Assembly: GCA_048886685.1 (NCBI GenBank)
Contig: JBHLKM010000035.1
Coordinates: 1-13,491 of the forward strand
Length of the DNA stretch: 13,491 nt
Source of the DNA: Candidatus Hodarchaeota archaeon
Lineage (GTDB): Archaea; Asgardarchaeota; Lokiarchaeia; Sigyniarchaeales; SOKP01
Reading direction: 5' to 3'
Positions 1 through 13,491 of this stretch are shown here, in pieces. How positions within the stretch are numbered: position 1 is the stretch's first letter; each line of letters begins with the position of its first letter. The notes below the pieces were generated by a model that saw only the letters and a program-made list of their open reading frames with translations, was not told the origin of the DNA and ran no database searches. A program made the translations under genes and the position numbers.

Positions 1-851
1 ACAGATGCGAATATTATGGCAACTGTAATCGCAGACGTATCAATAATCGCGACTGTCGTTTCCTCAGGAACTAATAAGGTCCATGTTGACAAAATACTTG
101 TTTCTGCAGTGAGATAACCATCTTGATTCGTTGTCGGGATGGTGTACCATTCTTCACTTTCATTATTATAATAAGCCCACTGACTTAGTCGGTTCTGATT
201 AGTTTCTCTGATTCTTAATCTTGCTTTTAGAAAGGTTCCATTATGGGGACATTCGGAATTGCATTTACACTCCGAATCACATTTGCATTGGCAGTCACAT
301 TCGCAATTACATACAGGTTCGCATTCACATGGGCAATCACATATACAAGGACATTCTGATTCACAATTGCATACACAATTACAGGAGCACACACATTTAG
401 GGTCACATTTACATTCACAACAACAAATTGCAGTAGATTTCATTGTAATACAAAAACCTTCAAAATAACGATATGTATTTCTATTTCTCACTCTATGTAG
501 ACTTCCATTCATTAAACCGAGTTGTGCTTCCTCTCTGGTACATTTCATAGTCATTTTAAGGTCATCATCTCCTTCAACTTCAATAATGACATCTTTATAT
601 CCTATTTCTATAGCATCACAGTTAATATTCAATTCTAAGCCAACATTGGCACAAATTGTTAATTTTGTTCTTTCCTGAAACCAAAACATAGTTCTGATAT
701 TACTTTGTAGTTGTGTTTGAATCGTATCACCTTGAACTGTTACTGTTTGATCTGGAGTTTCAATTGCCCTTACATTAACAGATCCTACTAATGAAAGCAC
801 AATCAACACCATGACACCACTTAATAATATCTTACTAAAACTTTTTTGCAT
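1..851 (-). CDS. Secreted/membrane-anchored protein with metallothionein-like Cys-rich (CxC repeat) insert; 3' end runs off the window
   Basis: Absent from the ORF track because there is no stop in the window. Manual translation from ATG 851 is open for 283 codons: signal peptide MQKSFSKILLSGVMVLIVLSLVGSVNVRA, then ...TYRYFEGFCITMKSTAI-CCCECKCDPKCVCSCNCVCNCESECPCICDCPCECEPVCNCECDCQCKCDSECKCNSEC-PHNGTFLKARLRIRETNQNRLSQWAYYNNESEEWYTIPTTNQDGYLTAETSILSTWTLLVPEE..., ending in hydrophobic AITVAIIFAS (probable TM start). GGTGA SD-like motif at 858-862. Confidence 0.9.
   Translation of the reverse strand, partial: MQKSFSKILLSGVMVLIVLSLVGSVNVRAIETPDQTVTVQGDTIQTQLQSNIRTMFWFQERTKLTICANVGLELNINCDAIEIGYKDVIIEVEGDDDLKMTMKCTREEAQLGLMNGSLHRVRNRNTYRYFEGFCITMKSTAICCCECKCDPKCVCSCNCVCNCESECPCICDCPCECEPVCNCECDCQCKCDSECKCNSECPHNGTFLKARLRIRETNQNRLSQWAYYNNESEEWYTIPTTNQDGYLTAETSILSTWTLLVPEETTVAIIDTSAITVAIIFAS
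249..425 (-). repeat. Cys-rich coding repeat, 14-aa (42-nt) period: (CxCxCxCxCxC-xxx)n
   Basis: Units: CCCECKC-DPK / CVCSCNCVCNC-ESE / CPCICDCPCEC-EPV / CNCECDCQCKC-DSE / CKC-NSE-C. 26 Cys in 59 codons, counted by hand. Confidence 0.9.
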
Positions 852-959
852 TAAAAATCACCAAATTTTAAATCAAAGAATAATTTGAATTTAAAATAAA
901 AAGGATTAAGGTATAACTTTCCCCAATAAGATTGAATCTCAAAATTAAAACTAAGGAAA

Positions 960-1127
960 ATGAAAATCCTTAGAGAATCTATCGAAATTAATATTTCTCC
1001 CGAAGTTATTTGGGATTTGTTATTACACATAGCAGAAAATTACCTAGAATGACATCCTTCTCACATAAAGGATAAATGGGAAACAGAAATAGCTAAAGAT
1101 GTATCCTTTTCTAATGCGGTATCTTGA
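960..1127 (+). pseudogene. SRPBCC (START/polyketide-cyclase-like) family N-terminal remnant
   Basis: ATG 960: MKILRESIEINISPEVIWDLLLHIAENYLE*HPSHIKDKWETEIAKDVSFSNAVS*. Matches the SRPBCC start pattern (SIEIxxxPExxW...YxxWHPxH). In-frame TGA at 1050-1052 sits where the Trp of WHP is expected; the rest of the domain is missing. Confidence 0.6.
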
Positions 1128-1218
1128 AGGGTTAAATAAGGCTCTGGGCGATGATAAAAAGAAAATCGATAAATGGGAAAAAGATTTAAGAAAATATTTA
1201 ACTAATTTAAGTGATTGA
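1099..1218 (+). other. Short ORF or C-terminal gene fragment (39 aa) abutting the DUF166 start
   Basis: MYPFLMRYLEGLNKALGDDKKKIDKWEKDLRKYLTNLSD*. Protein-like helical composition; the stop lies 1 nt before ATG 1220, as in an operon junction. Confidence 0.3.
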
Positions 1219-1219
1219 A

Positions 1220-1906
1220 ATGAAAATCGGACTAATTTCAGATGGAAAGTATGGCGAGAGAGCATTTGAAAATTTCAAACGAGAATTTGAAGTTATTTGG
1301 ATAAAGGTCCCAGAGATTCCCTCAAATATAATATTAGATGAAATTGTTAACGTTAATATTCCCGATTGCGATCTCTACATCTCTTACATAAGACATCCAG
1401 ATTTAATCCTACAAATAGCAGAACTTCAAAAGCCACTGATTTTAGGAATCACGCCCGGTCTTGGTTTAGCTGAACAAGCAAAAAGAATTAATCCTAAAGT
1501 AATTAGCCCAAGAACTATGTGTTCATTAGAACCTAACACAGGTATTGACGAAATAGATGAGTTTGCACTCTATTTTGGAAGACCAAAGTACGAAGTATTA
1601 ACCAATTCTCAAGGTTTAGTACGAGCTATTAAAGTGAATCGTTCTTCTCCGTGTGGTTCTTCTTTAGCGAGTGCTAATTTCATAAAAAGTAAATCAATAA
1701 AATTGAACAATCTTCAAAACTTTGCTTTGGCAGTATGCCATGAATGTAGAGCACCTCGTTTTGGTCATACTTGCGATAAAGAAATTTCTGGAATGATTCA
1801 TATAATATCATTAATCAATAGTGTTCAATTTGATGGATTAGATCCAGAAACTGCTGATTTTATTGTAAAAATTAACAAAGAATATAATGCTCGAATTAAA
1901 AATTAG
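1220..1906 (+). CDS. DUF166 family protein (conserved Cys motifs, function unknown)
   Basis: N-terminal ISDGKYGERA, internal HPDL, PRTMCSL, FGRPKYEV, RSSPCGSS and C-terminal CHECRAPRFGHTCDK. ATG 1220 is preferred over GTG 1211 because GTGA at 1211-1214 looks like the SD. Confidence 0.75.
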   Translation: MKIGLISDGKYGERAFENFKREFEVIWIKVPEIPSNIILDEIVNVNIPDCDLYISYIRHPDLILQIAELQKPLILGITPGLGLAEQAKRINPKVISPRTMCSLEPNTGIDEIDEFALYFGRPKYEVLTNSQGLVRAIKVNRSSPCGSSLASANFIKSKSIKLNNLQNFALAVCHECRAPRFGHTCDKEISGMIHIISLINSVQFDGLDPETADFIVKINKEYNARIKN

Positions 1907-2024
1907 AATCTAGAATTTCATGGGTTTATATTTTCTAAAATCATATCTTGTGATGATTTCACCTCGAAGGAATTGTAGTTGTTTCAGAAAGTTTAATATA
2001 GAAACAAGGAATTAAGCTACGATT

Positions 2025-3395
2025 CTATTTCATATAATCATTGTATTCGGGTATAAATCCTTCTTTCATTAATAGCTTAAATTCCGATTGAGAATTTTCA
2101 ATTAATTTTTTTGCGGTTGAATATAATTCTTCTTCTGAAAGTTTAAGGCGGGCTATTCCTTGTTCAATTGCTTTTAAGCCAGTAGTAACAGCTTCTCTGA
2201 TGAATGATTCTTCATAATCCATGGTCGGAAGGATACATGTCTCTGTTAAACCCCCTTTAATCTCATCAACTAAATTTGCTAGAGCATAAGAAGCTGCAAT
2301 GCACATCTCATCAGTAATAGTTTTAGCGCATACATCTAAGGTTCCTCTAAATACTCCTGGGAAACATAGAGAATTATTTACTTGATTTGGAAAATCAGAT
2401 CGTCCTGTTCCTACAATTCTCGCACCAGCTTCTAATGCATCCCATGGAAATATTTCTGGAATTGGATTCGCTAAGGTGAAAACTATCGCATCATCAGCCA
2501 TTTTTGAAATCCATTCCTTCTTAATGACATCAGGACCTGGAATACTAGAAGATATAAGAATATCAGCTCCTTCCATTGCTATACCACAATCACCCTGCAA
2601 TTGTTCTGGATTACTAAAATCAATTAATTCAAGTTTATAATCATGAGTATCTCTTAAATCCGTTCTATCCTTATATAAAATTCCTTTCGAATCTACAAAT
2701 ATAAATTTTTTTAAATTAAATCCATCGGTTTTTAATAATCGAAAAATTCCGAAATTTGCAGCACCAGCTCCATTAAAGACAATCTTCACTTCACTTTTCT
2801 TCTTTCCTACTATTCGTAATGAATTTATTAATGCAGCAAGAGTTACACATGCAGTTCCTTGTTGATCATCATGCCATACGGGAATTTCTATTTCTGGGTC
2901 TGCACGGATTCCATCTAAAACAGAAAAGCATTTGGGTTTTTCAATATCTTCTAAATTTATACCCCCAAATGAAGGTTGAATCAATTTTACAAATTCTATA
3001 ATCTGATCAGCATCGCAACATGTTTCTTTACCAATACATAAGGGAACGGCATCAACACCACCTAAATATTTGAACAATAAAGATTTTCCTTCCATCACCG
3101 GTAAAGCTGCTTCAGGACCAATATCTCCAAGACCTAAAACTCTTGTTCCGTCACTTACAATAGCAATAGAATTCCATTTATTTGTATATTCATACACTTT
3201 TTGTTTATCTTTAAAAATTTCGGAAGAGGGTGCTGATACTCCAGGAGAATACCATATCGAAAAGTCATGATAATCTCGAATTTGACAACGAGGAAGTACC
3301 TCTATTTTACCCCTGTAGAACTTATGCATTTTGATTGCATTAAGTCCAGGAATTTTTGATTTTCTCAATAGTTCTTCTTTAGTTAATTTTTTCAT
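2025..3395 (-). CDS. mae: NAD(P)-dependent malic enzyme (short prokaryotic type, no PTA fusion)
   Basis: Motifs YSPGV, SDGTRVLGLGDIGPEAALPVMEGKSLLFKYLGGVD, GINLEDI, WHDDQQGTA, NGAGAA (Rossmann), ANPIPEI, TGRSDFPNQVNNSLCFPGVFRG. Confidence 0.96.
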   Translation of the reverse strand: MKKLTKEELLRKSKIPGLNAIKMHKFYRGKIEVLPRCQIRDYHDFSIWYSPGVSAPSSEIFKDKQKVYEYTNKWNSIAIVSDGTRVLGLGDIGPEAALPVMEGKSLLFKYLGGVDAVPLCIGKETCCDADQIIEFVKLIQPSFGGINLEDIEKPKCFSVLDGIRADPEIEIPVWHDDQQGTACVTLAALINSLRIVGKKKSEVKIVFNGAGAANFGIFRLLKTDGFNLKKFIFVDSKGILYKDRTDLRDTHDYKLELIDFSNPEQLQGDCGIAMEGADILISSSIPGPDVIKKEWISKMADDAIVFTLANPIPEIFPWDALEAGARIVGTGRSDFPNQVNNSLCFPGVFRGTLDVCAKTITDEMCIAASYALANLVDEIKGGLTETCILPTMDYEESFIREAVTTGLKAIEQGIARLKLSEEELYSTAKKLIENSQSEFKLLMKEGFIPEYNDYMK

Positions 3396-3501
3396 AAAAA
3401 AATAAAATACCTCTGAATTATAATAAATTTGATTATATTACATAAATACATTTAATATATCTATTACTTTGCTTAAAAAGTTTAATATCTAAGGGAATCA
3501 C

Positions 3502-3700
3502 TCACTCATGGGGTATTAAAAACATCAAGAGTATAATAATTATTACCTAACAGAGGAAAATTGATGCTCAAATAATAGATTTCTTTTGGCTTTTCTCCTT
3601 TACTAGTTCTACCATGAGCTCAGTAGTAGCAATGTACAAAAAACCAATCACTCCAGAAACTATAAATCACTAAAACCATAATATAATCCCAAGTACTCAT
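3502..3700 (-). pseudogene. ZIP (ZupT/GufA-like) metal transporter remnant, internally deleted
   Basis: Minus frame 3666..3502: FIVSGVIGFLYIATTELMVELVKEKSQKKSII*ASIFLC*VIIIILLMFLIPHE*. Resembles the ZIP TM7-TM8 signature (GxFLYIAxxELxPEL...KKS). Stops at 3570-3568 and 3549-3547. ATG 3700 (MSTWDYIMVLV) is in another frame. Confidence 0.5.
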
Positions 3701-3974
3701 TTCTTTAATTCTTTCCATGCTAGCCTAGATGTACAAAACTATGAAGGAAAAAAAAGAATTTTATATTTGAATCTAAGTTGATCAGCCTATTTAAGACTTA
3801 TTCTAGTACTATCTCTTCTGTATACTCCGTGAATAAATCCAATAATTTTACTAGTAATTTCAATAATTTACAGGTGAAAAAGATGGAATCCCTTTTATAT
3901 TGAAAAAAATATAATATTCTACATGATCAAAATTGATCACACATCTTAAAAAAACAAAACAAAATGAAATCAAC

Positions 3975-5357
3975 ATGCAAAAAAAAATCGTAATAACGAG
4001 TTGGATATTAACTGCATTAGCACTATCGATCATACTTCCTGTAATAGCGGTGAGCGCCAAAAAACCAGAATATATCACCAGCGACTCCGTCTACATCAAT
4101 GATGCCGTTGAAGGTTGTTCCTGGGAAGATTGGAGCGCACAACCGTGGTTGAAAGGATCAGGTACAGAAGAAGATCCCTACATGATTAAAGATCTCACCA
4201 TTGAGGTAAGCGGTCCTGTGTTTGCCCTGATGATCTACGGATCAAGCGTCCATTTTAAGATAATGAAGTGCACTTTCCGCAACATAGGAGGGCAAGGAAC
4301 TGCGGCACTTGTATTACTCGGAACGCAAAACGGAGTTGTCTTTAAAAACACGTTCTATGGAAGCAATACGGGAATTGCCTTAATTGGATCGGAGCACAAC
4401 GTAATCCAGAAGAATTTTTGTTATGAAAATGTTATTGGGATTTATAACCAATGGGGTATGTTCAATACTATTACGCAAAACGACTGTATTAACAACTTTG
4501 GTTCGGGTATTGTGATCGACTCAGCTCATAAGACATTAATTGAGCGGAACGTCTGCATGGGAAACATTAAAGCAGGCATTGCGTTGATAACTCAAAATGA
4601 AGAAAACACCCCTAAAGATAACCTGATTTACGCAAATACGTTGAAAAACAACCAAGTTGGAATTTACTTAAACGATTCGGATAAAAACGATATGTTTAGA
4701 AATACGATTGCACAAAACGCGGTCGGGATCATGTTTGACGTGGGATCCCAAGAAAACACAGTGTACCATAATAACATCGTCAATAATGGCATGCAAACCA
4801 TTGATTATCAACCGTTGATGAACAATTGGTATCATCCTTTCATGTTAGAAGGAAATTACTGGTCGGATTATGCAGGTGTAGATGAGAACGAAGATGGTAT
4901 CGGGGACACTCCTCGTGGGTATGATGGATATCCGCTCATGGGAAAAGACGGCTGGGACTTTTATACTCCTGAGGAACAGGAAATTCTAGACGCCTTCTTC
5001 AACAATATTAATCGGTTAGGAGCCGACCGCACCGTGAATGGAAGTGAGACCAGCTACATTATCTACGGTGTCATTCAGTTATTTTCTGAAAGAATGAACG
5101 GGGAAGCAAATCCTCCCTATAGTATGAGGATCAATGGAAATGAAGTGTCAGATTCCGTGTGGTATTTTCAAGAGGAATCTGCTTTTGGAGAACCAGGTTT
5201 AAACCAATATTTCTACCTGAAATTACCTCCTAATTTTCTCTTTGATGTAATGGGGCTTACTCCGGGATACTGGAAATATTTCGTAGAATTGAGTTGGTAT
5301 ATGGGCGAGGATTTGTTCACAGATAGTTTCTGGACGGGCTTCACCTTAATTCAATAA
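3975..5357 (+). CDS. Secreted right-handed parallel beta-helix (NosD/CASH, pectin-lyase-like) protein
   Basis: Signal peptide MQKKIVITSWILTALALSIILPVIAVSA from ATG 3975 (the track start 3933 is TTG). GSGTEEDPYMI motif, repeated GIxLxxSxxNxIxxNxxxxN PbH1 units, and NosD-type GNYWSDYAGVDENEDGIGDTP, followed by an unassigned C-terminal domain. Confidence 0.85.
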   Translation: MQKKIVITSWILTALALSIILPVIAVSAKKPEYITSDSVYINDAVEGCSWEDWSAQPWLKGSGTEEDPYMIKDLTIEVSGPVFALMIYGSSVHFKIMKCTFRNIGGQGTAALVLLGTQNGVVFKNTFYGSNTGIALIGSEHNVIQKNFCYENVIGIYNQWGMFNTITQNDCINNFGSGIVIDSAHKTLIERNVCMGNIKAGIALITQNEENTPKDNLIYANTLKNNQVGIYLNDSDKNDMFRNTIAQNAVGIMFDVGSQENTVYHNNIVNNGMQTIDYQPLMNNWYHPFMLEGNYWSDYAGVDENEDGIGDTPRGYDGYPLMGKDGWDFYTPEEQEILDAFFNNINRLGADRTVNGSETSYIIYGVIQLFSERMNGEANPPYSMRINGNEVSDSVWYFQEESAFGEPGLNQYFYLKLPPNFLFDVMGLTPGYWKYFVELSWYMGEDLFTDSFWTGFTLIQ

Positions 5358-5373
5358 ATGGCTTTTATGCCAC

Positions 5374-5388
5374 TTTTTTTTATTTTTT
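5374..5388 (+). terminator. T-rich archaeal-type terminator after the beta-helix gene
   Basis: tttttttt-a-tttttt tract starting about 16 nt after stop 5357. Confidence 0.45.
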
Positions 5389-5426
5389 GCTCCAATCTTT
5401 TTAAGCTACCGTTAGTAGCCCGTCGT

Positions 5427-5636
5427 ATGCAACTCATTTGCGATCAGGTTAGAGCCCCCGCAGGATGGAGATTCCAAGAATGTAGTTCTGAAAAGGTTAT
5501 CTTAAAAAGAACCAAGAAGGTCGGGGAGTGGAAATTTGACGCCTTGTCTGATCTGCTTGATTACGTGCAATACGCTAAAAAAACCAAAAATCCTAAAGAA
5601 TCCTGGGAAGTAATCATGTATAATGAATACAGCTAA
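5427..5636 (+). other. Short hypothetical ORF or gene remnant
   Basis: MQLICDQVRAPAGWRFQECSSEKVILKRTKKVGEWKFDALSDLLDYVQYAKKTKNPKESWEVIMYNEYS. Protein-like but no recognisable family. The track start at 5358 runs through the T-tract. Confidence 0.25.
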
Positions 5637-5674
5637 ACGGTGCCTGAAGGCATAAAACAATCACGGAAAGGATT

Positions 5675-5849
5675 GCAAAGATCTTTAGGAATTTTTCCTT
5701 AAAGATGTTCAAGAAAATTATCTCTTGAAATATACTCCAAGGATCCTTTTCTCTTTTCAATAATCTTAAAATGTAAGAACTTTTACAAAAGGTTGGAAAC
5801 AGACAATATTGTAAAATTTAAATGTTTAAATTTTATATTAAAATTAGAA
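5675..5849 (+). repeat. Direct repeat copy 1 (~175 bp), upstream of the cdc48-like gene
   Basis: gcaaagatctttag...aattagaa aligns to 7333..7506 with 12 substitutions and 1 indel (~93%, manual alignment). Confidence 0.95.
5810..5834 (+). promoter_or_regulatory. Putative TATA-box region inside the repeat
   Basis: TGTAAAA-TTTAAA-TG-TTTAAA-TTT (TTTAAA at 5817 and 5825), about 40-55 nt upstream of the 5871 start. Conserved in copy 2 (7474, 7482). Confidence 0.45.
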
Positions 5850-5870
5850 TGAACATGCATTTTTTAAAAT

Positions 5871-7313
5871 GTGTTAAAAGTGGTAAAAGACAAAACAGTT
5901 AGAAAGAGAGCAAAACTCAGAGTCGAACGTCTTGAAAAAAGCAGAGGCGGTCGTTCTTTATGTTATATTCATCAAGATGTAATGATTGATTTAGGGTTAC
6001 ATACGGGTGATATCATCGAAATTAGGGGAAAGAAAAAAACTACTGGTATTGCCGTTTTGAATTCTGCTTATAGAGGAAAAGGAATTATAAGATTAGATGG
6101 TCTTCAGAGACTTAACGCAGGAGCAACCATTGGCGAGTATGTTTCATTAAAGAAAACAAAAGTATATCCTGCAATTGAAATTGTTTTAACTCCTACAAGA
6201 TCAAATATAGATTTAAAAAGACAAGCAGATGCGATTAAAAGTAAATTAATTGATAAACCAGTAGTAATTGGTGATATAGTTGATGTTTTTGGGACTTTTG
6301 TTCAAAGAGAAGATCATGACAATCGTATGTCTGATCTTATGAAAATGTTTCAACTTGGTTCAAAAAGAAGGGCAACTTTAGGAACATTAAGGTTTATCGT
6401 TGAAGATTTGAAACCATCAGATAAAGTCGTAAAAATAACTCGAGATACTATAATAAAAGTAAATAAACGGGTTGCGGTTTTAAATAAAGTAGGTGGGAAG
6501 GTTACCTATAGCGATGTAGGAGGATTATCTGATGAAATTTATAGGATTCGAGAAATAGTTGAATTACCTTTAAAACATCCAGAATTATTCCAAAAATTAA
6601 GAATAACTCCACTTCAAGGCATTTTACTATACGGTCCCCCCGGAGTCGGGAAAACTTTATTAGTTAAAGCAATTTCACAAGAAACAGGAGTAAATTTTAT
6701 TGATATTAGTGGCCCAGAGATTTATAGTAAATTTTCTGGAGAGACTGAAGGAAAGCTTCGTGAAATATTCAGAAATGCAGAAGAAAATGCCCCATCAATA
6801 ATATTTTTTGATAAAATAGATGTTATTGCTCCAAAAGAAAAGGTTCATACTGATAAATTGGATAGGAGAGTTATCGCGCAACTTTTAATTCTGATGGATG
6901 GACTCCGTGGTAGAGGTGAAGTTATTATAATAGCGGAGACGAATAGAATTGATGATATTGATCCTGCATTAAGGCGCCCAGGGAGATTTGATAGAGAAAT
7001 CGAAATTAAACCTCCTGATACTAAGGGAAGATTAGAAATTTTAAAAATTCACACCCGCGAAATGCCTTTGGATGAGGATGTTGATCTTCAAATAATCGCA
7101 GAAAGAACCCAAGGGTTTGTTGGGGCTGATCTTGAGGCTTTGGTAAAGGAAGCGGCAATTTTAGAGATGAAAGAAGTTTTACCAAAAATAAAAGAAGATA
7201 TATCTATTCCAGCAGATACTTTAGATGATCTTCAAATCAGGATGGAGCATTTTCTTACTGCCTTAGGAAGCATGAGCCCTTCAACTCTTAGACAAATGCT
7301 AACAAAACCTTAA
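5871..7313 (+). CDS. cdc48: Cdc48/p97/VAT-family protein, N-domain plus a single AAA module, degenerate Walker B
   Basis: N-domain ([29 protein letters not shown]), [23 protein letters not shown], Walker A GPPGVGKT (6633-6656), Walker B IIFFDKID (AAA at 6813), [26 protein letters not shown]. Ends at the D1-D2 linker (PSTLRQ); no D2. Confidence 0.92.
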
Positions 7314-7332
7314 AGTTTTAAAGAATGAAATA

Positions 7333-7506
7333 GCAAAGATCTTTAGTAATTTTACCTTAAAGATGTTCAAGAAAATTATCTCTTGAAATATACTCCAAGG
7401 ATCCTTTTCTCTTTTAATAATCTTATAATGATAGAGCTTTTACAAAAGGTTGGAAATAGACAATAATGTAAAATTTAAATGTTTAAATTTGTTAATATAA
7501 TTAGAA
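7333..7506 (+). repeat. Direct repeat copy 2 (~174 bp), between the cdc48-like and Rab-like genes
   Basis: Same alignment as copy 1; begins after a 19-nt gap following the cdc48 stop; period 1658 bp. Confidence 0.95.
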
Positions 7507-7648
7507 GGAAAAGAAAGAGAATCCTGCCTTGTAGAAGTTAAATTTTAATTTCTATAAATCGAGATTTTTTGAATAGAAATGGGATTATTAAGTAAGTGGA
7601 GGATTATTAATTCAGGGTTTAGAATTAATGATCAATTGTAGTGAAAAG

Positions 7649-8173
7649 ATGTCAAGCTTTAAATTAAAAGTATTATTAACAGGCGCTAAAGCAGTAGATA
7701 AGACAAGGCTATTTAATAAAATAATTAAAGTAAGGATTCAAGCAAATTACAAGCTAACTGTAGGTGTTGACATTCTTACAAAAGATGTTGAATTTAGAAC
7801 AGGAGAAATTGCTATTTTAAGCATTTGGGATATAAGAGACCAACAACGTTTTGAATATATTCGCAGTACATTTTATAAAGGAGCAGCTGGAGCTATATTA
7901 GTTTTTGATTTAACACGAGAAGAGACATATAGTGAAGTAAAAAATTTACTTACTGAAATAAGGCAATTCGCTGGTGAAAATATTCCTTTTGTTTTAATCG
8001 GAAATAACGTTCATTTACTTAAACTGAAAGATAAAGGAATTATTCGAAAAGAGGCTTGTGAATTTGCCAGAAATGAAGGAGGGATCTATATTGAGATATC
8101 TCCAACCAGTATTGATGTTCTCGAAGAAGGAATTTGTGAATTAACTCGTAGGATTATTAATTCAAGAACTTAA
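7649..8173 (+). CDS. Rab/Ras-superfamily small GTPase-fold protein, predicted pseudo-GTPase
   Basis: FKLKVLLTG, YKLTVGVD (G2), LSIWD, QRFEYIRSTFYKGAAGAILVFDLT, IPFVLIGN. G1 GAKAVDKT, G3 DIRD, G4 NNVH and G5 EISPT are all non-canonical. ATG 7649 is preferred (GTGA at 7641); the track start is 7628. No C-terminal prenylation Cys. Confidence 0.9.
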   Translation: MSSFKLKVLLTGAKAVDKTRLFNKIIKVRIQANYKLTVGVDILTKDVEFRTGEIAILSIWDIRDQQRFEYIRSTFYKGAAGAILVFDLTREETYSEVKNLLTEIRQFAGENIPFVLIGNNVHLLKLKDKGIIRKEACEFARNEGGIYIEISPTSIDVLEEGICELTRRIINSRT

Positions 8174-8371
8174 AATATTGAGTAATTTAGCTACAGATGC
8201 TTAGCTTAAGAGTAGAACTATTAAAACTGAGCAGATTCAATTCCATTATCTCACGGGAAAAATAGACATAAATGTAGAGTTTATATTGATAAATTTTCTT
8301 GTTATTATTTGGGATTAAGCGGTTGAAAAATAAAAAAAGATCCAAAAAAAAGGTGTAATATATCCTATAAA

Positions 8372-9613
8372 ATGTCACATTATGATTATACATTAAAAGT
8401 GTTGCTTCTTGGTGATGAAACTAAAGCAAAAACAGCTTTCACCAAAAGATATTGCTATAATATATTTAATCCATCAGAGCGATTAACAATCGGAGTAGAC
8501 TTCCATGTAAAAAGCATTGAAATAAACGGTACAAAAATAAAACTTCAAATCTGGGATGTTGGAGGGGAAGAGAGGTTTAGATTCCTTTTACCAACGTATT
8601 GTTTAGGTGCTAATGGCGCTTTTCTACTATATGACATAACTAAACCCTCTACTTTAGATAATATACCAGAATGGATGAATATTATAAGGGAAAAGGGAGG
8701 ACCGATACCTATTATGTTAGTTGGATCAAAACTTCATTCAGAAGAACATCGAGTAGTTTCTAGAGAAAAAGGAATTTCAATGGCAGAAAATTATAATCTC
8801 TCGGCTTTTATGGAAATTTGCTCTGAAGCGAATGTGAATATTGATGAAGCATTTAAAGTCCTAATCGAACTTATACTTGAAAGGTATGAAGATTTAAGAA
8901 CCCTAATACCATTAAATTTCGCACCTATTAAAATTAAACCCGAATTCAAAATTAACGAATATTTGGAACTCCGATTAGAAAATAGTAAAACGAACATATA
9001 TGTCGGAGGAGATTTGTTTAACAGCTGCAAATATTTATTATTAAACCTGACAAAGGATAATAATAATAATTTTGAGAATATTGACTCAGTGGATCAAGCT
9101 ATTGAAAATTTAGATGGATCGATGGAACGGGAGCATAAACATGATATTTCTGCCGAAACAGAATTTTGGGGACATTGTTCCAATTTACAGGCGTGGTATG
9201 AAAATGATTATGATACACGTATTTTACATAGAAATTTAGCGTTTCCTCTTTTGAAAGCACTTGTAAAAGCGGGAGATAAAACTGCAAGAGTAAAATTTAA
9301 AGAGCAAGTTGCCCTTAGGCTTGAAAGTGGTTATCCTTCTGTAGTAATGTTTCTTATAGCTCAAGGTTATTTAAAATATTTAACTGAGGAAGAATTAGAT
9401 ACTATATTAAAAAATCCAAAATTTTTAAAAAATGTGCCAAAATGGTTTAATGATTTCAAGAATATTCCAGATTGGCTTGAAGAAAAGATAAGAGCGATAT
9501 TTAACGATTTGAAGTGTCCCTATTGTGATATTAGGATAAAAAGGAATTCAATTCAGAGAATTCTAAAGGGAGAATCATTGAAATGTGAATTTTGTTATAG
9601 TAATCTAATATAA
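8372..9613 (+). CDS. Rab-like GTPase domain fused to a Lokiarchaeal 'EFWGHCSNLQAW' domain and a C-terminal Zn ribbon
   Basis: aa 1-~173: LTIGVDFHVK, KLQIWDVGGEERFRFL, GAFLLYDIT, with G1 GDETKAKT, G4 SKLH, G5 EICSE. 8942-9397: EFKINEYLELRLE...CKYLLL...EFWGHCSNLQAWYENDYDTRILHRNLAFPLLK...GYLKYLTEEEL. 9515-9595: CPYC-x19-CEFC. Confidence 0.9.
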   Translation: MSHYDYTLKVLLLGDETKAKTAFTKRYCYNIFNPSERLTIGVDFHVKSIEINGTKIKLQIWDVGGEERFRFLLPTYCLGANGAFLLYDITKPSTLDNIPEWMNIIREKGGPIPIMLVGSKLHSEEHRVVSREKGISMAENYNLSAFMEICSEANVNIDEAFKVLIELILERYEDLRTLIPLNFAPIKIKPEFKINEYLELRLENSKTNIYVGGDLFNSCKYLLLNLTKDNNNNFENIDSVDQAIENLDGSMEREHKHDISAETEFWGHCSNLQAWYENDYDTRILHRNLAFPLLKALVKAGDKTARVKFKEQVALRLESGYPSVVMFLIAQGYLKYLTEEELDTILKNPKFLKNVPKWFNDFKNIPDWLEEKIRAIFNDLKCPYCDIRIKRNSIQRILKGESLKCEFCYSNLI

Positions 9614-9854
9614 TAATTGGAACTTGAAAATTTCATTCAAGATAAAATCTGGGAAAATATCACTCCAATTGTAACACATTCTTGTTATTTTCTCTTCTTT
9701 TTCATAAGGTGATTCTCCTCAATTTATCTAAATCGGATATGAAGATAGGGCTGAAAACATTTTCTTACACGTTTTTAATCTAGGTGAAATATTTTTAAAT
9801 CTTATTTAATGATGTAAAAAATAATTTAATCCGCTTTATAAGCTGAAAAACAAG

Positions 9855-9882
9855 TGTAAATATTTATAAGCGTAAATGTAAT
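9855..9882 (+). promoter_or_regulatory. Putative promoter/operator of the RHH gene
   Basis: TGTAAA-TATTTATAAG-CGTAAA-TGTAAT: a TATA-like TTTATAA flanked by (T/C)GTAA repeats, about 50-75 nt upstream of ATG 9930. Confidence 0.4.
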
Positions 9883-9929
9883 CAATTTAATTAGCAAAAG
9901 AAGGATTAACGTTTAGGAAATTTAAAAAA

Positions 9930-10325
9930 ATGAAGATTATTACAGTTCAATTACCAGAATCATATACACGGAAATTAGAAAACATGACTCGACAGATTGG
10001 TGTTAGTAGATCAGAACTTATTAGAACGGCAGTCAGGGACTTCCTAAATAACGAGTTTACCTTAATTGAAGAATTAAAAAAAGAAAATAGAAGAAATAAA
10101 ATTGCCAGGTTTTTTGATTACTGTATTAATTGTGAAAGAAAAATATATAGTGCTTCAGGGAGTAATCACTTTTTTCATAAAACAATTGAAATTTTCAAAT
10201 TGAAGTTTTGTTGTTCTTGTTATAAGAACTATAGGGATAAAACTTTAGATGAGTTTCCAGAAGATTTGATCGAAAAAATAAAGAAGAGGATTAAGGCATA
10301 TCGAGAAAATTCTTCGTCATCATAA
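9930..10325 (+). CDS. Ribbon-helix-helix (CopG/Arc/MetJ) transcriptional regulator with C-terminal Cys4 Zn-binding module
   Basis: MKIITVQLPESYTRKLENM...GVSRSELIRTAVRDFL is a typical RHH; followed by CINC-x25-CCSC. Confidence 0.85.
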   Translation: MKIITVQLPESYTRKLENMTRQIGVSRSELIRTAVRDFLNNEFTLIEELKKENRRNKIARFFDYCINCERKIYSASGSNHFFHKTIEIFKLKFCCSCYKNYRDKTLDEFPEDLIEKIKKRIKAYRENSSSS

Positions 10326-10426
10326 AGAGAATATGGTTTTATAGAGCCCTTTCTGTGGTATTTTTTATAGATGATATTGATAATTAAGTTTAATCGAAGA
10401 GAACAAATTAAAAAAAAATAAAATAA

Positions 10427-13400
10427 TTAAGATTTCTGTTTTACTCGCTTATAAACAATGAGAATTATTATAACACACGCTATTCCAATGAAATATAAGG
10501 GATAACCGGATATTGTCCCAGGACCTCCGCCTGGAGATTCCTCCTGTACATCGATGAAGTCAAAATTAGACGGATCTGAGCTTCCTGATTCATTAGATGC
10601 AACGACAGCGTAGTACCATCTGCCAATTCCGGGTACAGTGTCCGTTGTAGTAGTTTCTGATGTAGTTTTTACTTCCGTCGCGAGATTTAAATTACTCGAA
10701 GTTATTGCGGATGTGTATCTATAAAGAGTATAATTGTCCGCACCTGGTGAAGTTGTCCATTCCAATGAGATATCAAAGCTAGTTGTAGGTGATGTGGTAG
10801 TAATAGTCAATACCGGAGGGTTTGGTGATTCTGGTTCTTTTTGAACATCGATATATGGAGAATTAGAGGGGTCTGAGTTTCCCGTCTCATTAGTAGCAAC
10901 AACTGCATAATACCATGTTCCAATTCCAGGTACAGTATCTGTTGTAGAGATATCCGTAATAGTTTTTACATTTGTAGCAAGATGTAGATTGCTCGAAGTT
11001 ATTGGGGAAGTATATCTATAGAGTGTATAATTATCAGCGCCCAATGATGTTGTCCATTCCAAAGCAATGACAAAACTGGTTGTTGGAGAAGACGTAAGTA
11101 TACTTAATGTTGGGGGACTAGGTGTTTGCGGAGCCCATTCATCCCAATTTAGGGTAAGATTGTCTGAATTATCCATTGGTTGGGCTGCAAAATCAACATT
11201 CGGATAGGTACCTAAAAACCAAGATAGATCATCTTGACCAAAAAAATGAGGTATGTCGTTAAAATTTACTTCAAATGTCCAATTAGTGTGAAAATTCAAG
11301 TAATATAACAAGGATTGGAGCTGGATTTTAGTAAAAGAAAAATCTTGAGTTCTATTTGCTTCAAAGACAATAGATTTATGAGTTTCATTGAATATAAAAT
11401 GACCTTCATTTTCAAATTCTAATCCCTCTCCAGTTATAGTCCCGTTGAGAGCTCCTTGAAGTTGAGGGGTAAAAATCAAATCTAATCCTGTAGTTTCATC
11501 TAGAATCAGGTGATCTATAAGTTGGCAAAAAGATTGTAGATCTGGCTTAAAGGTTTTTATTAGGTATTTTATAATTGGCCAAAGGTGAATTCTAATATCA
11601 CATGTTACTATATTTCCCACAACATGATTTCCAAGAACAAAATTCTCAATTGAAATGTAAGTAGTTGCCTTGCTTTTATTTAGATAGTCATTAATAGACT
11701 TTTGAATGTAATCCGAAGCAATACCACTTAATCCATCCTTAAATCCAAAATAATTAAGATATAAGTTAATTTCTTGAAGAGGAATAGGAAAATGTATACT
11801 TCCCTTTTTTGTTATATTAAAATCTCCAGTAAAGAGTTTCTGATTAAATGAAACGTTGTAGTCAATCAAATAGTCTATAGTAATATTTGGGTTCCCCATT
11901 GCGCCTATAGTAAGAGTAAAATTGCCTGTTTCACCTATTCCTGGCTCATTCTCTGGATATGATAGTGTAAAATTAATAGGTATATCAACGGTAGTGTTGA
12001 CTTGAGCTTCAAGATTTGATTTAAAATATGGATCTGTTTGTATTATACTTTCAATCCAATCTTTGATATTAGGTTCAATTAATAAGATGTTCTCAAGCCC
12101 TGAAGCAATGTATGGAGCTTTAAAAAGTGAATTAAAATATAGTGTAAATGGTGTTTTTAATGGACAAAATTTGGTAGTCCAGTTTCCCCATGTGTTATTT
12201 TCGATAAATTCATTAAAATGATTGCCATATAAATCTCTCAAAACTGTATTATTTAATGCATATCTAGGAATTTCATTCCACATAAATGTTGTGGCTAGTT
12301 GTGGATTATAGGGTTTGATTTCAAAGCCATGTGAATTTGTAGTAGTTGCGAGTCTCACAGAGGAACCTATTTGGTTTTCCATACTTATAGGTGTTGTGTT
12401 TACAGCTATACTCATTTTAATAGTTTCATTTAGAAAGGGGGCTAATTGAGCAGTTGTATTAATAGAATAGTTATAAATACCCTCACCTAAACTAAAGTTA
12501 GGATCAAATATTTGGTGATATCGATCATTGTTATCAGCCCAGGAATCATCATAAAAACATACGATCCGATCTGGAAATGAACCAATATTATAAGGATTTA
12601 TAAAAGCAATATAAGGAACCCAATCATAAGCTACATCGAAAGATATGCCACTTTTAAGTTTTCTCGATGAATATTCATATATAAAAATTAAAGCCAGAGA
12701 ATCTCCATATATATCATCTGTACCCTTTAGAATTCGTTCATATATCTTAATTGGCTTGTCAATTGTAGGATTAACTTTACCTAACGCTGGGCGATACATA
12801 TCCATTAGATCTTTTACAGTAACATTCGCAGTTCCAAGGCCTTCAGAAAGTAGTGCACCATTAGTTGCGACTTTTGGATTTTCAGTGTTCTCTGGACCCC
12901 ACATAACTAAATAATACCATCCAGTTTTGTTAATTGTAATCGCGAAATTAGTGGAAGCATTCATGATTTTTGGTAGACCCGCATTATTTATTTCTTTACT
13001 GTATTCGTAGATCCAATCATCACTAGTATGGGATGAATTAAAACCATCAACTCCCAAAATATTTGGCACCCAAAGCCATGGTTTGATATAATTTTCAAAA
13101 TCGAGAAATTGGCTTTGGTTGAAAATGTACAAGTTTGTTTCTAAATTAGCAAAAGTAATTATATAACCTTCCCATGAAGTTGTTATATTATAGATTACCC
13201 CTTCCCTTGCGAAAAACACTGTAGTATCATAAGGATTAAGCATATTATTATTAGTAGAAGGCAAAGAAGCATTATTATCAAAATCACGATAGTGATTCCA
13301 AGACACATTTGATGGTTGAAATGTAATTTCTATGGAGTCTGTATGCGTATATGAAGTTGTATTAATAGGATTAAAATCAGTTAGGTTTCCAATAAGGGCA

Positions 13401-13491
13401 TCCATCGATAAATCTTCAGTACTATTTTTATATACATAATTAATCATCGGTTCACTCCAGGTCAATATTGTAGTAATTTCATCTGTTAAAG
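10427..13491 (-). CDS. Large cell-surface glycoprotein with two C-terminal FN3-like repeats and Loki-CTERM-like anchor; 5' end outside the window
   Basis: Frame stays open beyond the track's TTG 13465 to the window edge (LTDEITTI-LTWSEP). Very many N-x-S/T sequons. Two 99-aa FN3-like units. Ends GGGPGTISGYPLYFIGIACVIIILIVYKRVKQKS (I[PS]GY + TM + basic tail). Confidence 0.88.
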   Translation of the reverse strand, partial: LTDEITTILTWSEPMINYVYKNSTEDLSMDALIGNLTDFNPINTTSYTHTDSIEITFQPSNVSWNHYRDFDNNASLPSTNNNMLNPYDTTVFFAREGVIYNITTSWEGYIITFANLETNLYIFNQSQFLDFENYIKPWLWVPNILGVDGFNSSHTSDDWIYEYSKEINNAGLPKIMNASTNFAITINKTGWYYLVMWGPENTENPKVATNGALLSEGLGTANVTVKDLMDMYRPALGKVNPTIDKPIKIYERILKGTDDIYGDSLALIFIYEYSSRKLKSGISFDVAYDWVPYIAFINPYNIGSFPDRIVCFYDDSWADNNDRYHQIFDPNFSLGEGIYNYSINTTAQLAPFLNETIKMSIAVNTTPISMENQIGSSVRLATTTNSHGFEIKPYNPQLATTFMWNEIPRYALNNTVLRDLYGNHFNEFIENNTWGNWTTKFCPLKTPFTLYFNSLFKAPYIASGLENILLIEPNIKDWIESIIQTDPYFKSNLEAQVNTTVDIPINFTLSYPENEPGIGETGNFTLTIGAMGNPNITIDYLIDYNVSFNQKLFTGDFNITKKGSIHFPIPLQEINLYLNYFGFKDGLSGIASDYIQKSINDYLNKSKATTYISIENFVLGNHVVGNIVTCDIRIHLWPIIKYLIKTFKPDLQSFCQLIDHLILDETTGLDLIFTPQLQGALNGTITGEGLEFENEGHFIFNETHKSIVFEANRTQDFSFTKIQLQSLLYYLNFHTNWTFEVNFNDIPHFFGQDDLSWFLGTYPNVDFAAQPMDNSDNLTLNWDEWAPQTPSPPTLSILTSSPTTSFVIALEWTTSLGADNYTLYRYTSPITSSNLHLATNVKTITDISTTDTVPGIGTWYYAVVATNETGNSDPSNSPYIDVQKEPESPNPPVLTITTTSPTTSFDISLEWTTSPGADNYTLYRYTSAITSSNLNLATEVKTTSETTTTDTVPGIGRWYYAVVASNESGSSDPSNFDFIDVQEESPGGGPGTISGYPLYFIGIACVIIILIVYKRVKQKS
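10538..11131 (-). repeat. Tandem 297-bp (99-aa) FN3-like domain duplication
   Basis: Unit 1 11131-10835 and unit 2 10834-10538 share LEWTTSxGADNYTLYRYTSxITSSNLxLATxVKT...TTDTVPGIGxWYYAVVAxNExGxSDPSN. Confidence 0.92.

Follow-up and report, generated by a model that had tools for sequence, protein, structure and literature searches.

A cysteine-rich, hydrophilic composition, free of aromatic residues and of histidine, is the hallmark of metallothioneins, which are small (<10 kDa) stand-alone proteins that usually stay in the cytosol. The protein that we describe here carries a block of alternating cysteines, hereafter the cysteine ladder, that resembles plant type 1 and fungal CxC-type metallothioneins as well as phytochelatins and the synthetic (Glu-Cys)n peptides that are displayed on cells for biosorption. 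It shares with them the CxC motif, a large share of cysteine (44% in the ladder), the absence of aromatic residues and histidine, and acidic spacers. As in metallothioneins, the cysteines are kept while the spacers drift, and the size varies in a modular way. Some ladder homologs even have variants with a period of 6 (CxC+3), the spacing of plant type 1 metallothioneins. However, the ladder is not a small stand-alone protein but an insert within an exported membrane protein of about 310 residues, and we know of no metallothionein in which runs of alternating cysteines are as long as these, which reach six. The surface display of metallothioneins or phytochelatin analogues is, to our knowledge, known as an engineering approach and not in nature.

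Alternating cysteines are also found outside cells, with a short and fixed period, in the theta-defensins (CxCxC...CxCxC), in the 12-residue beta-helix of the Tenebrio antifreeze protein and in the CXCXC repeat PF03128, and the ladder is similar to them in these respects. Its cysteine density is, however, two to three times higher than that of such cystine-ladder proteins, and it has neither a match to PF03128 nor a confident fold. The host differs as well, in that its genome gives no sign of an exported disulfide system.

The remainder of the protein is best compared with the MAIN and GAIN_B domains (4dlo, 8vy2, 9mqr). As in these, there is a signal peptide, and a beta-sandwich stands directly before the surface anchor. 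The cleavage motif of the Bacillota MAIN domains, HFS, is identical to the motif found in those relatives of our protein that have no ladder (the plain relatives), and it occupies the same turn before the last strand. There are differences as well. MAIN proteins average 158 kDa, whereas the ladder protein has about 300 residues and no N-terminal adhesion or enzyme domain; they are anchored by sortase or SLH, and the ladder protein by a transmembrane (TM) helix. Moreover, the only cargo of the latter is the insert within the domain itself, HFS is replaced by ILS in the window protein, and our searches of Pfam and PDB sequences found no sequence-profile link.

The gene and its cysteine ladder

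The window, i.e., the whole stretch of DNA that we analysed, is the complete contig JBHLKM010000035.1 (C35, positions 1-13491) of the 4.4-Mb genome, with 31% GC, of a Lokiarchaeial (Promethearchaeota) archaeon. The ladder gene lies on the minus strand at 3..851, as whole as the contig permits. Its ATG (849-851) starts a frame of 283 codons that reaches no stop before the contig start, which is why the gene was absent from the ORF track behind the preliminary description. The 283-residue product is thus truncated at its 3' end and, by comparison with full-length homologs, lacks its last ~26-30 residues, which hold the remainder of the TM helix and a basic tail. A Shine-Dalgarno-like GGTGA (858..862, minus strand) stands 6 nt 5' of the ATG, and a TATA-like AT-rich TTTATTTTAA is found at 891-900 on the same strand; both were read from the sequence and carry little weight in a genome with 31% GC. 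Two ORFs on the plus strand overlap the ladder, one at 221-400 and one, rich in His, Ser and Gln, at 259-468; they were discarded as mirror products of the repeat, having neither start context nor homologs.

All the parts of the protein are encoded on the minus strand. Residues 1-29 (765..851) form a Sec-type signal peptide that begins with MQKSFSK, with Lys in the n-region, a hydrophobic core and VRA before the likely cleavage point; it has no twin arginine, it is kept in the homologs, and it is modelled by AlphaFold2 (AF2) as a helix (residues 5-23) outside the domain. The N-terminal part of a GAIN/MAIN-like beta-sandwich ectodomain follows (residues 30-142; 426..764), modelled with a pLDDT >90 and assigned by the VIA-align search described below; it closes with the strand C134-ITM, after which comes a short linker, STAI. 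The ladder itself (residues 143-201; 249..425) is then followed by the C-terminal part of the ectodomain (residues 202-262; 66..248; pLDDT 86-97), which comprises NGTF, the ARLRIR strand, a segment from ~W226 to W235, GYL and the final strand TWTLLVP. Near-invariant columns of the homolog alignment are A226, Y227, Y228, W235, G245, Y246, L247, S255, W257, T258, L260 and P262. Residues 263-283 (3..65) make up a juxtamembrane linker and the beginning of the TM helix, which the contig end cuts.

The full-length homologs (295-313 aa) consist of the signal peptide, a beta-sandwich ectodomain of ~190 aa, a TM helix and a KKRR/RKRR tail. Because these members finish in the TM helix and KKRR, the ladder protein is, as read from sequence, anchored in the membrane as a type I surface protein that exposes its ladder outside the cell. 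The preliminary description had proposed a real gene with a signal peptide and a probable C-terminal TM segment: the gene is an open frame of 283 residues, the signal peptide is legible in it (MQKSFSK, hydrophobic core, VRA), and the TM segment, of which the window has just the beginning, is found whole in the full-length homologs. An archaeosortase sorting signal (conserved Pro, TM and basic tail) was considered and rejected, as the Pro closes the last strand of the domain, 15-20 residues before the TM; no NCBIfam model for a sorting signal of this type matched.

The ladder counts 26 Cys in 59 residues and contains no F, W, Y or H. Its runs of alternating cysteines have 4, 6, 6, 6 and 2 members, the first run having one further Cys in place of an x residue; a closing Cys follows, and the linkers are, in order, DPK, ESE, EPV, DSE and NSE. 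The three complete CxCxCxCxCxC+3 units carry ESE, EPV and DSE, while DPK and NSE belong to partial units. The composition first reported for 249-425, i.e., 26 Cys in 59 residues with three perfect units and these linkers, is exactly what the translation gives. A strict pattern of six alternating Cys codons has 3 matches in the 4.4-Mb genome, all of them in the ladder gene, against 0 for the reversed control. At the DNA level, the three complete units are identical at just 24-27/42 nt, 12 of which are forced by the TG of the Cys codons; the TGT:TGC usage in the ladder is 18:8, and TRF detects a weak 12-nt periodicity. The divergence of the unit DNA and the mixed use of TGT and TGC therefore mean that the ladder is not a recent microsatellite.

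Database searches returned little. None of four ladder segments matched any Pfam family at E<=10, metallothionein families and PF03128 included, and the ladder protein had no match in NCBIfam and no significant one among PDB sequences. A feature search of the ESM Atlas with the ladder segment gave no usable match. A phmmer search with the ladder only (P0001:141-201) against 1.84 billion representatives returned one spurious protein of 1495 aa with 3 Cys; composition filters defeat such a query, which makes this search uninformative on other scaffolds. A phylum-wide scan for the DNA pattern was swamped by simple repeats, with the control matching about as often in many genomes, and it was left out of the distribution counts. 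The literature searched held nothing relevant on Asgard cysteine-rich surface proteins or archaeal metallothioneins; hence the earlier statement that no archaeal example has been described stands for Pfam, NCBIfam, PDB sequences and this literature.

The ladder is an insert, as had been suspected. The same genome encodes a paralog, P0002 (contig C3, L002:1351-2031; 226 aa), which has a similar signal peptide and domain, a complete TM with an RKRK tail, and no ladder. The two proteins align by BLASTP with 33% identity (E 2e-51) and a single gap of ~63 aa, exactly at the ladder. In the AF2 model of P0002, this site is the loop joining strands 130-135 and 142-148, which places the ladder at the tip of a hairpin, five strands ahead of the last turn. 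More than 150 related clusters have no ladder but a short hairpin loop at that site. The plain type accounts for 304 database matches from Promethearchaeota/Loki-type MAGs, nearly all of them 224-234 aa long. Among proteins of 497-2000 aa, none turned up that would be a longer, fused form, and the domain starts directly after the signal peptide. A shape search of the ESM Atlas also showed that Promethearchaeota have proteins in which the ectodomain fold is joined to a TM helix and to HTH domains on the cytoplasmic side, and one such HTH-fused TM gene adjoins P0002.

In the JGI, ENA, NCBI and Logan assemblies, 82 further clusters at 90% identity bear the ladder (83 with the window); their proteins have 247-373 aa, with 5 to >50 ladder Cys. 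The preliminary description had made the persistence of the Cys spacing in homologs decisive, and about 80 clusters retain it. The 242 full units give the consensus C-T-C-[EVP]-C-D-C-[EQ]-C-K-C-D-P-E, and the spacers are mainly D, E, Q, K, T and P. Most runs have 6, 4 or 2 Cys (223, 98 and 91 cases, respectively), the linker has three residues in 411/519 cases, and a period of 14 aa is the most frequent. The length of the insert is odd in 82/83 clusters, and therefore lengths differ by even steps; there are two modes, 81 aa in 30 clusters and 67 aa in 12, the window included. The number of runs, for its part, takes both parities (1, 5, 6, 8...). The reading frame is intact across all homologs. 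Around the ladder gene, the five loci compared share no functional neighbour and no conserved metal-related, electron-transfer or maturation gene. Two of the five have a NosD-like beta-helix gene no more than 2-3 kb away, which we take as a coincidence.

Codon alignments of the window ladder with the four homologs for which DNA was fetched reveal what is being conserved. Between 21 and 25 of the 24-26 aligned Cys codons are retained, with 4-9 synonymous TGT/TGC swaps. The dN/dS of the ladder is 0.08-0.38, as opposed to about 0.4-1.5 once the Cys codons are removed, and therefore, by this codon comparison, selection maintains the cysteines and their spacing, not the spacer residues. The early preference for selection over slippage is thus borne out by the diverged unit DNA and by Cys codons that are retained through synonymous swaps. 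The number of units is labile: sister clusters can have 29 vs 50 Cys, or 30 vs 46 or more, and one nested member is down to 5.

The scaffold and its history

For the window protein and for P0002 alike, AF2 models the base domain with a pLDDT >90, while the ladder stays <50, with no secondary structure. This lends no support to the initial picture of 11-residue beta strands, and a rigid meander with one strand per unit is also disfavoured by the unit counts of both parities in an insert at a hairpin tip. An exhaustive structural search with VIA-align, run with both paralog models against 48,161 chains, placed GAIN domains in the top four positions for both (Z 6.0-7.1), among them BAI3 (4dlo; Z 7.0-7.1, 125-128 aligned residues), CELSR1 (8vy2; Z 7.0) and CD97 (Z 6.0-6.7). 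The autoproteolytic FIIND/ZU5 domains reached a Z of about 5-5.6. A structural Z of ~7 is moderate, in the middling range of the tool. Foldseek against the PDB gave nothing at E<=0.001, with GAIN and ZU5 entries appearing only at E about 0.05-0.6. Likewise, none of the 127 members had a GPS or GAIN Pfam match at E<=1, and two family profiles searched against PDB sequences gave chance matches only, with no sequence link to GAIN or GPS. Weak matches to DUF5803 (best E 0.003, 20/127 members) and a 25-mer match to picornavirus VP2 (E 0.05) were taken as chance. On these models, we call the domain GAIN/MAIN-like, short of a proven member.

In MAIN domains, the turn that leads into the last strand contains a conserved HFS, and cleavage takes place between its F and its S (bioRxiv 10.64898/2026.05.12.724683). 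In our family, HFS is present in 121 clusters of the plain type and 15 of the ladder type, and conservation among the plain relatives is at least 90% for H186, F187 and S188. Another about 65 ladder clusters, that of the window protein among them, have [VIFTS]L[SA] instead of HFS. The window protein departs from the HX(S/T) motif, with I253-L254-S255 (87..95, minus strand) as the degenerate counterpart of HFS and Ile at the position of the catalytic His; homolog comparison and AF2 place this ILS in the turn that joins strand 246-251 to the last one, 256-262. By arithmetic on the ranges of the CD97 alignments, the Ser of the family falls on the cleavage site of CD97, Ser531. In full-length homologs, the TM helix and the basic tail come 15-20 residues after the last strand, so that the domain is tethered at its C-terminal side. 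With its catalytic His replaced, the window protein is probably uncleaved. The loss of the His makes cleavage of this protein unlikely rather than impossible.

Trees were built on the columns of the base domain, with the insert removed (FastTree, 143 rows; IQ-TREE LG+C20, 70 rows). In both, the ladder proteins all fall on one side of one branch (support 99 and 98). Those that retain HFS are basal in the ladder group, with linkers that are mostly LNE or QNE, and the His-less ones form one clade (support 96 and 95) that includes the window protein, whose nearest relative is P0123. Some members of this clade are without the Ser too (TLA, FLA). When rooted on the plain proteins, these trees support a history that starts from a plain HFS domain and continues with a single gain of the ladder and then a single loss of the catalytic His. 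Within the genus, the ladder gene is found in about 13/52 species genomes and the plain paralog in about 45/52, which makes the ladder gene accessory.

Possible uses of the cysteines: thiolates, disulfides and others

We tentatively favour, at close to an even chance, the reading in which the ladder thiols stay reduced and bind metal ions outside the cell, much as a displayed metallothionein would. An ancestor gained the (Cys-x)n array once, at the hairpin tip of a stand-alone beta-sandwich of the GAIN/MAIN type, in the form of units of 2, 4 or 6 alternating Cys with a three-residue acidic or proline linker, and the array was later enlarged and reduced through the gain and loss of units. Outside a strictly anaerobic cell, the thiols would remain reduced and, together with the flanking Asp and Glu, could chelate thiophilic ions (Zn, Cu, Cd, Ni, Co, Fe) in metal-thiolate clusters. 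The benefit might be the capture of trace metals that are scarce in sulfidic porewater, or the retention of toxic metals outside the cell. Ancestral ladder proteins with HFS could have shed an N-terminal fragment bearing the ladder, while in the ILS lineage of the window, with the His lost, the array is probably kept covalently on the membrane. The failure of AF2 to find a fold for the insert fits a fold that may depend on a cofactor. A capacity that varies in size is typical of metal-handling genes, and we counted the accessory status of the ladder gene and its size-variable capacity on this side. On the other side stand the absence of a conserved metal-related neighbour (the loci differ) and of a metallothionein Pfam match at E<=10, the even number of Cys per run, which is equally what pairwise disulfides need, the two invariant Cys of the base domain, which are a possible disulfide, and a Cys parity test that rests on a crude rule.

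The even runs and the two invariant Cys sustain the next most likely reading, although we consider it rather unlikely: a disulfide-zipped element, which would serve as a rigid stalk or spacer, or as an adhesive knob, resistant to proteases, with pairing of CxC runs across neighbouring segments, comparable to the cystine ladder of theta-defensins or the disulfide-braced beta-helix of beetle antifreeze proteins. The mostly even runs (2, 4, 6) and the even steps of insert length are what pairing demands, the location is extracellular, the selection is confined to the Cys, and a variable number of repeats is common in surface stalks. The redox setting of the host, however, does not suit such a structure. 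The genome is 100% complete by marker genes, and neither VKOR nor DsbB was found in it, while control genomes gave matches. Its single DSBA-family protein begins directly at the CPFC fold, with no signal peptide, so that there is no exported DsbA either. An excess of even Cys counts is an accepted genomic signature of exported disulfides (PMC2823432). With a crude home-made signal-peptide rule applied to ORFs of at least 120 aa, we obtained 102 exported ectodomains, and the Cys count is even in 46% of the 91 that have at least one Cys, vs 48% of cytoplasmic ORFs. The absence of DsbB and VKOR and of any even-Cys bias favours reduced, metal-binding thiolates over a disulfide stalk, as judged from the genome. 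In the base domain itself, the two invariant cysteines, C78 and C104, may form a disulfide pair. These archaea are strict anaerobes of anoxic, sulfidic sediments, which also speaks against the stalk. AF2, which is usually able to model disulfide-rich repeats, gives a pLDDT <50, and the strongly acidic spacers would have no role in such a fold. Furthermore, the numbers of runs are of both parities, yet the ends of the insert have to meet at one hairpin tip, which suits a simple meander poorly. We lean to reduced thiols because of this anoxic sulfidic habitat, the acidic spacers, the lack of aromatic residues, the absence of a fold in AF2 and the unit counts of both parities.

In another reading, which we regard as improbable, the ladder would be a redox or mineral interface, i.e., a flat thiol lattice that grips or nucleates FeS, pyrite or ZnS, or an array with Fe-S centres that passes electrons to a syntrophic partner, mounted on a force-sensitive GAIN/MAIN domain from which release was at first possible. 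The array is dense, surface-exposed and acidic, and Asgard archaea are syntrophic in sediment rich in Fe and S. MAIN domains typically bear adhesion cargo, for which a shear-driven release has been proposed (bioRxiv 10.64898/2026.05.12.724683); the ladder is the sole cargo of a minimal domain, and the ancestral ladder forms retain HFS. Against this, export is through Sec and not Tat, which offers no route for preassembled Fe-S clusters, no conserved electron-transfer or maturation genes lie nearby at the five loci, and no regular strand structure is predicted, so that this reading is entirely conjectural. A bolder form of it, to which we give only a slim chance, would have a two-dimensional thiol lattice for metal-sulfide minerals or Fe-S wiring stand on a force-sensitive GAIN-type domain; it would amount to adhesion with mechanical release that predates the GAIN domain of adhesion GPCRs, with the His-less lineage permanently tethered.

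It is very improbable that the Cys runs are substrates for thioether, sactionine-type or lanthionine-type cross-links, or for lipidation, and not free ligands. Thr and Ser often stand beside the Cys in the units, and another protein of the phylum, with a (CA)6 tail at its C-terminus, is encoded beside a radical-SAM gene, which indicates that the maturation of Cys repeats exists in Asgard archaea; however, no maturase is conserved beside the ladder gene in the five loci, and the Sec export of an unfolded chain gives little time for modification in the cytoplasm. Finally, an insert without function, expanded as low-complexity sequence, or one created in assembly is hardly credible and already contradicted, since against a repeat number that differs between close relatives and the weak 12-nt periodicity seen by TRF stand 83 independent clusters with the frame intact in all homologs, Cys codons conserved through synonymous changes, a ladder dN/dS of 0.08-0.38 and units that have diverged at the DNA level.

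What the ladder family may tell

If the array binds metals, as we tentatively propose, we could find no natural precedent for such a surface-displayed metallothionein-like module, which would also be the first in Archaea, in the lineage closest to eukaryotes. It would then reveal by what means strict anaerobes of sulfidic sediment obtain trace metals in competition with sulfide, or exclude toxic ones. The 14-aa six-thiol unit, whose natural copy number ranges from 1 to more than 9, would also be a ready design for biosorption.

The scaffold has an interest of its own. Almost every member of this Loki genus has a minimal, stand-alone domain of GAIN/MAIN-like type, which comes as the plain HFS paralog, as HTH-fused TM relatives and as the ladder form, and these three forms offer a compact system in which to study what GAIN-type autoproteolysis did before adhesion GPCRs. 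In particular, the ladder clade provides a natural comparison between members predicted to cleave, which have HFS, and members predicted not to, which have lost the His.

Reading frames around and opposite the ladder

On the plus strand of the window, an open reading frame of 69 aa (259-468), rich in His, Ser and Gln with an HxH rhythm, runs antisense to the ladder. We rejected it as a gene: it is the mirror product of the Cys-codon repeat carried by the opposite strand. At a distance of 3 kb from the ladder gene lies a gene for a NosD/right-handed beta-helix protein (3933-5357, plus strand; Pfam NosD, 3.6e-27), and the ladder homolog of locus L008 likewise has a NosD-like gene about 2 kb away; we take this double proximity to be a coincidence. 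The same strand then carries, at 5871-9613, genes that Pfam assigns to a Cdc48-like AAA protein, which has an N domain and a single AAA ring, followed by two Ras/Roc-family GTPases.

The gene adjoining the plain paralog

Directly downstream of P0002, the ladder-less paralog on contig C3 of the same genome, a gene (L002:2113-3243) encodes a product of at least 377 aa, in which a related beta ectodomain is followed by a TM helix and then by a cytoplasmic ArsR/HTH-type domain. HFS, the autoproteolysis motif of MAIN domains, is absent from this ectodomain. An ESM Atlas shape search also returned Promethearchaeota clusters of about 420 aa that combine the same ectodomain fold (TM-score 0.80 by query) with a TM and HTH_24/HTH_5. 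This type of gene looks like a family of GAIN-like transmembrane transcription factors.

Other Cys-repeat proteins in Asgard archaea

In f13, another family of the phylum, where 26 of 31 genomes give repeat-pattern matches, a conserved membrane protein of at least 516 aa ends at its C terminus in GGGCACACACACACAGGGR (locus L033, G033:C1 near 419949; also L026, L029, L031, L034, L035 and L038). The gene next to the GGGCACACACACACAGGGR-tailed protein encodes a radical-SAM enzyme (CNNKCTKCYV); together they may constitute a Cys-Ala repeat tail with its maturase.

In a further genome, a secreted protein of 125 aa (locus L020, G018:C104 near 6948-7004), which begins with a signal peptide, contains CDCGCECECECECNCECNC within an unrelated scaffold. 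Exported CxC ladders therefore arose more than once in Asgard archaea.
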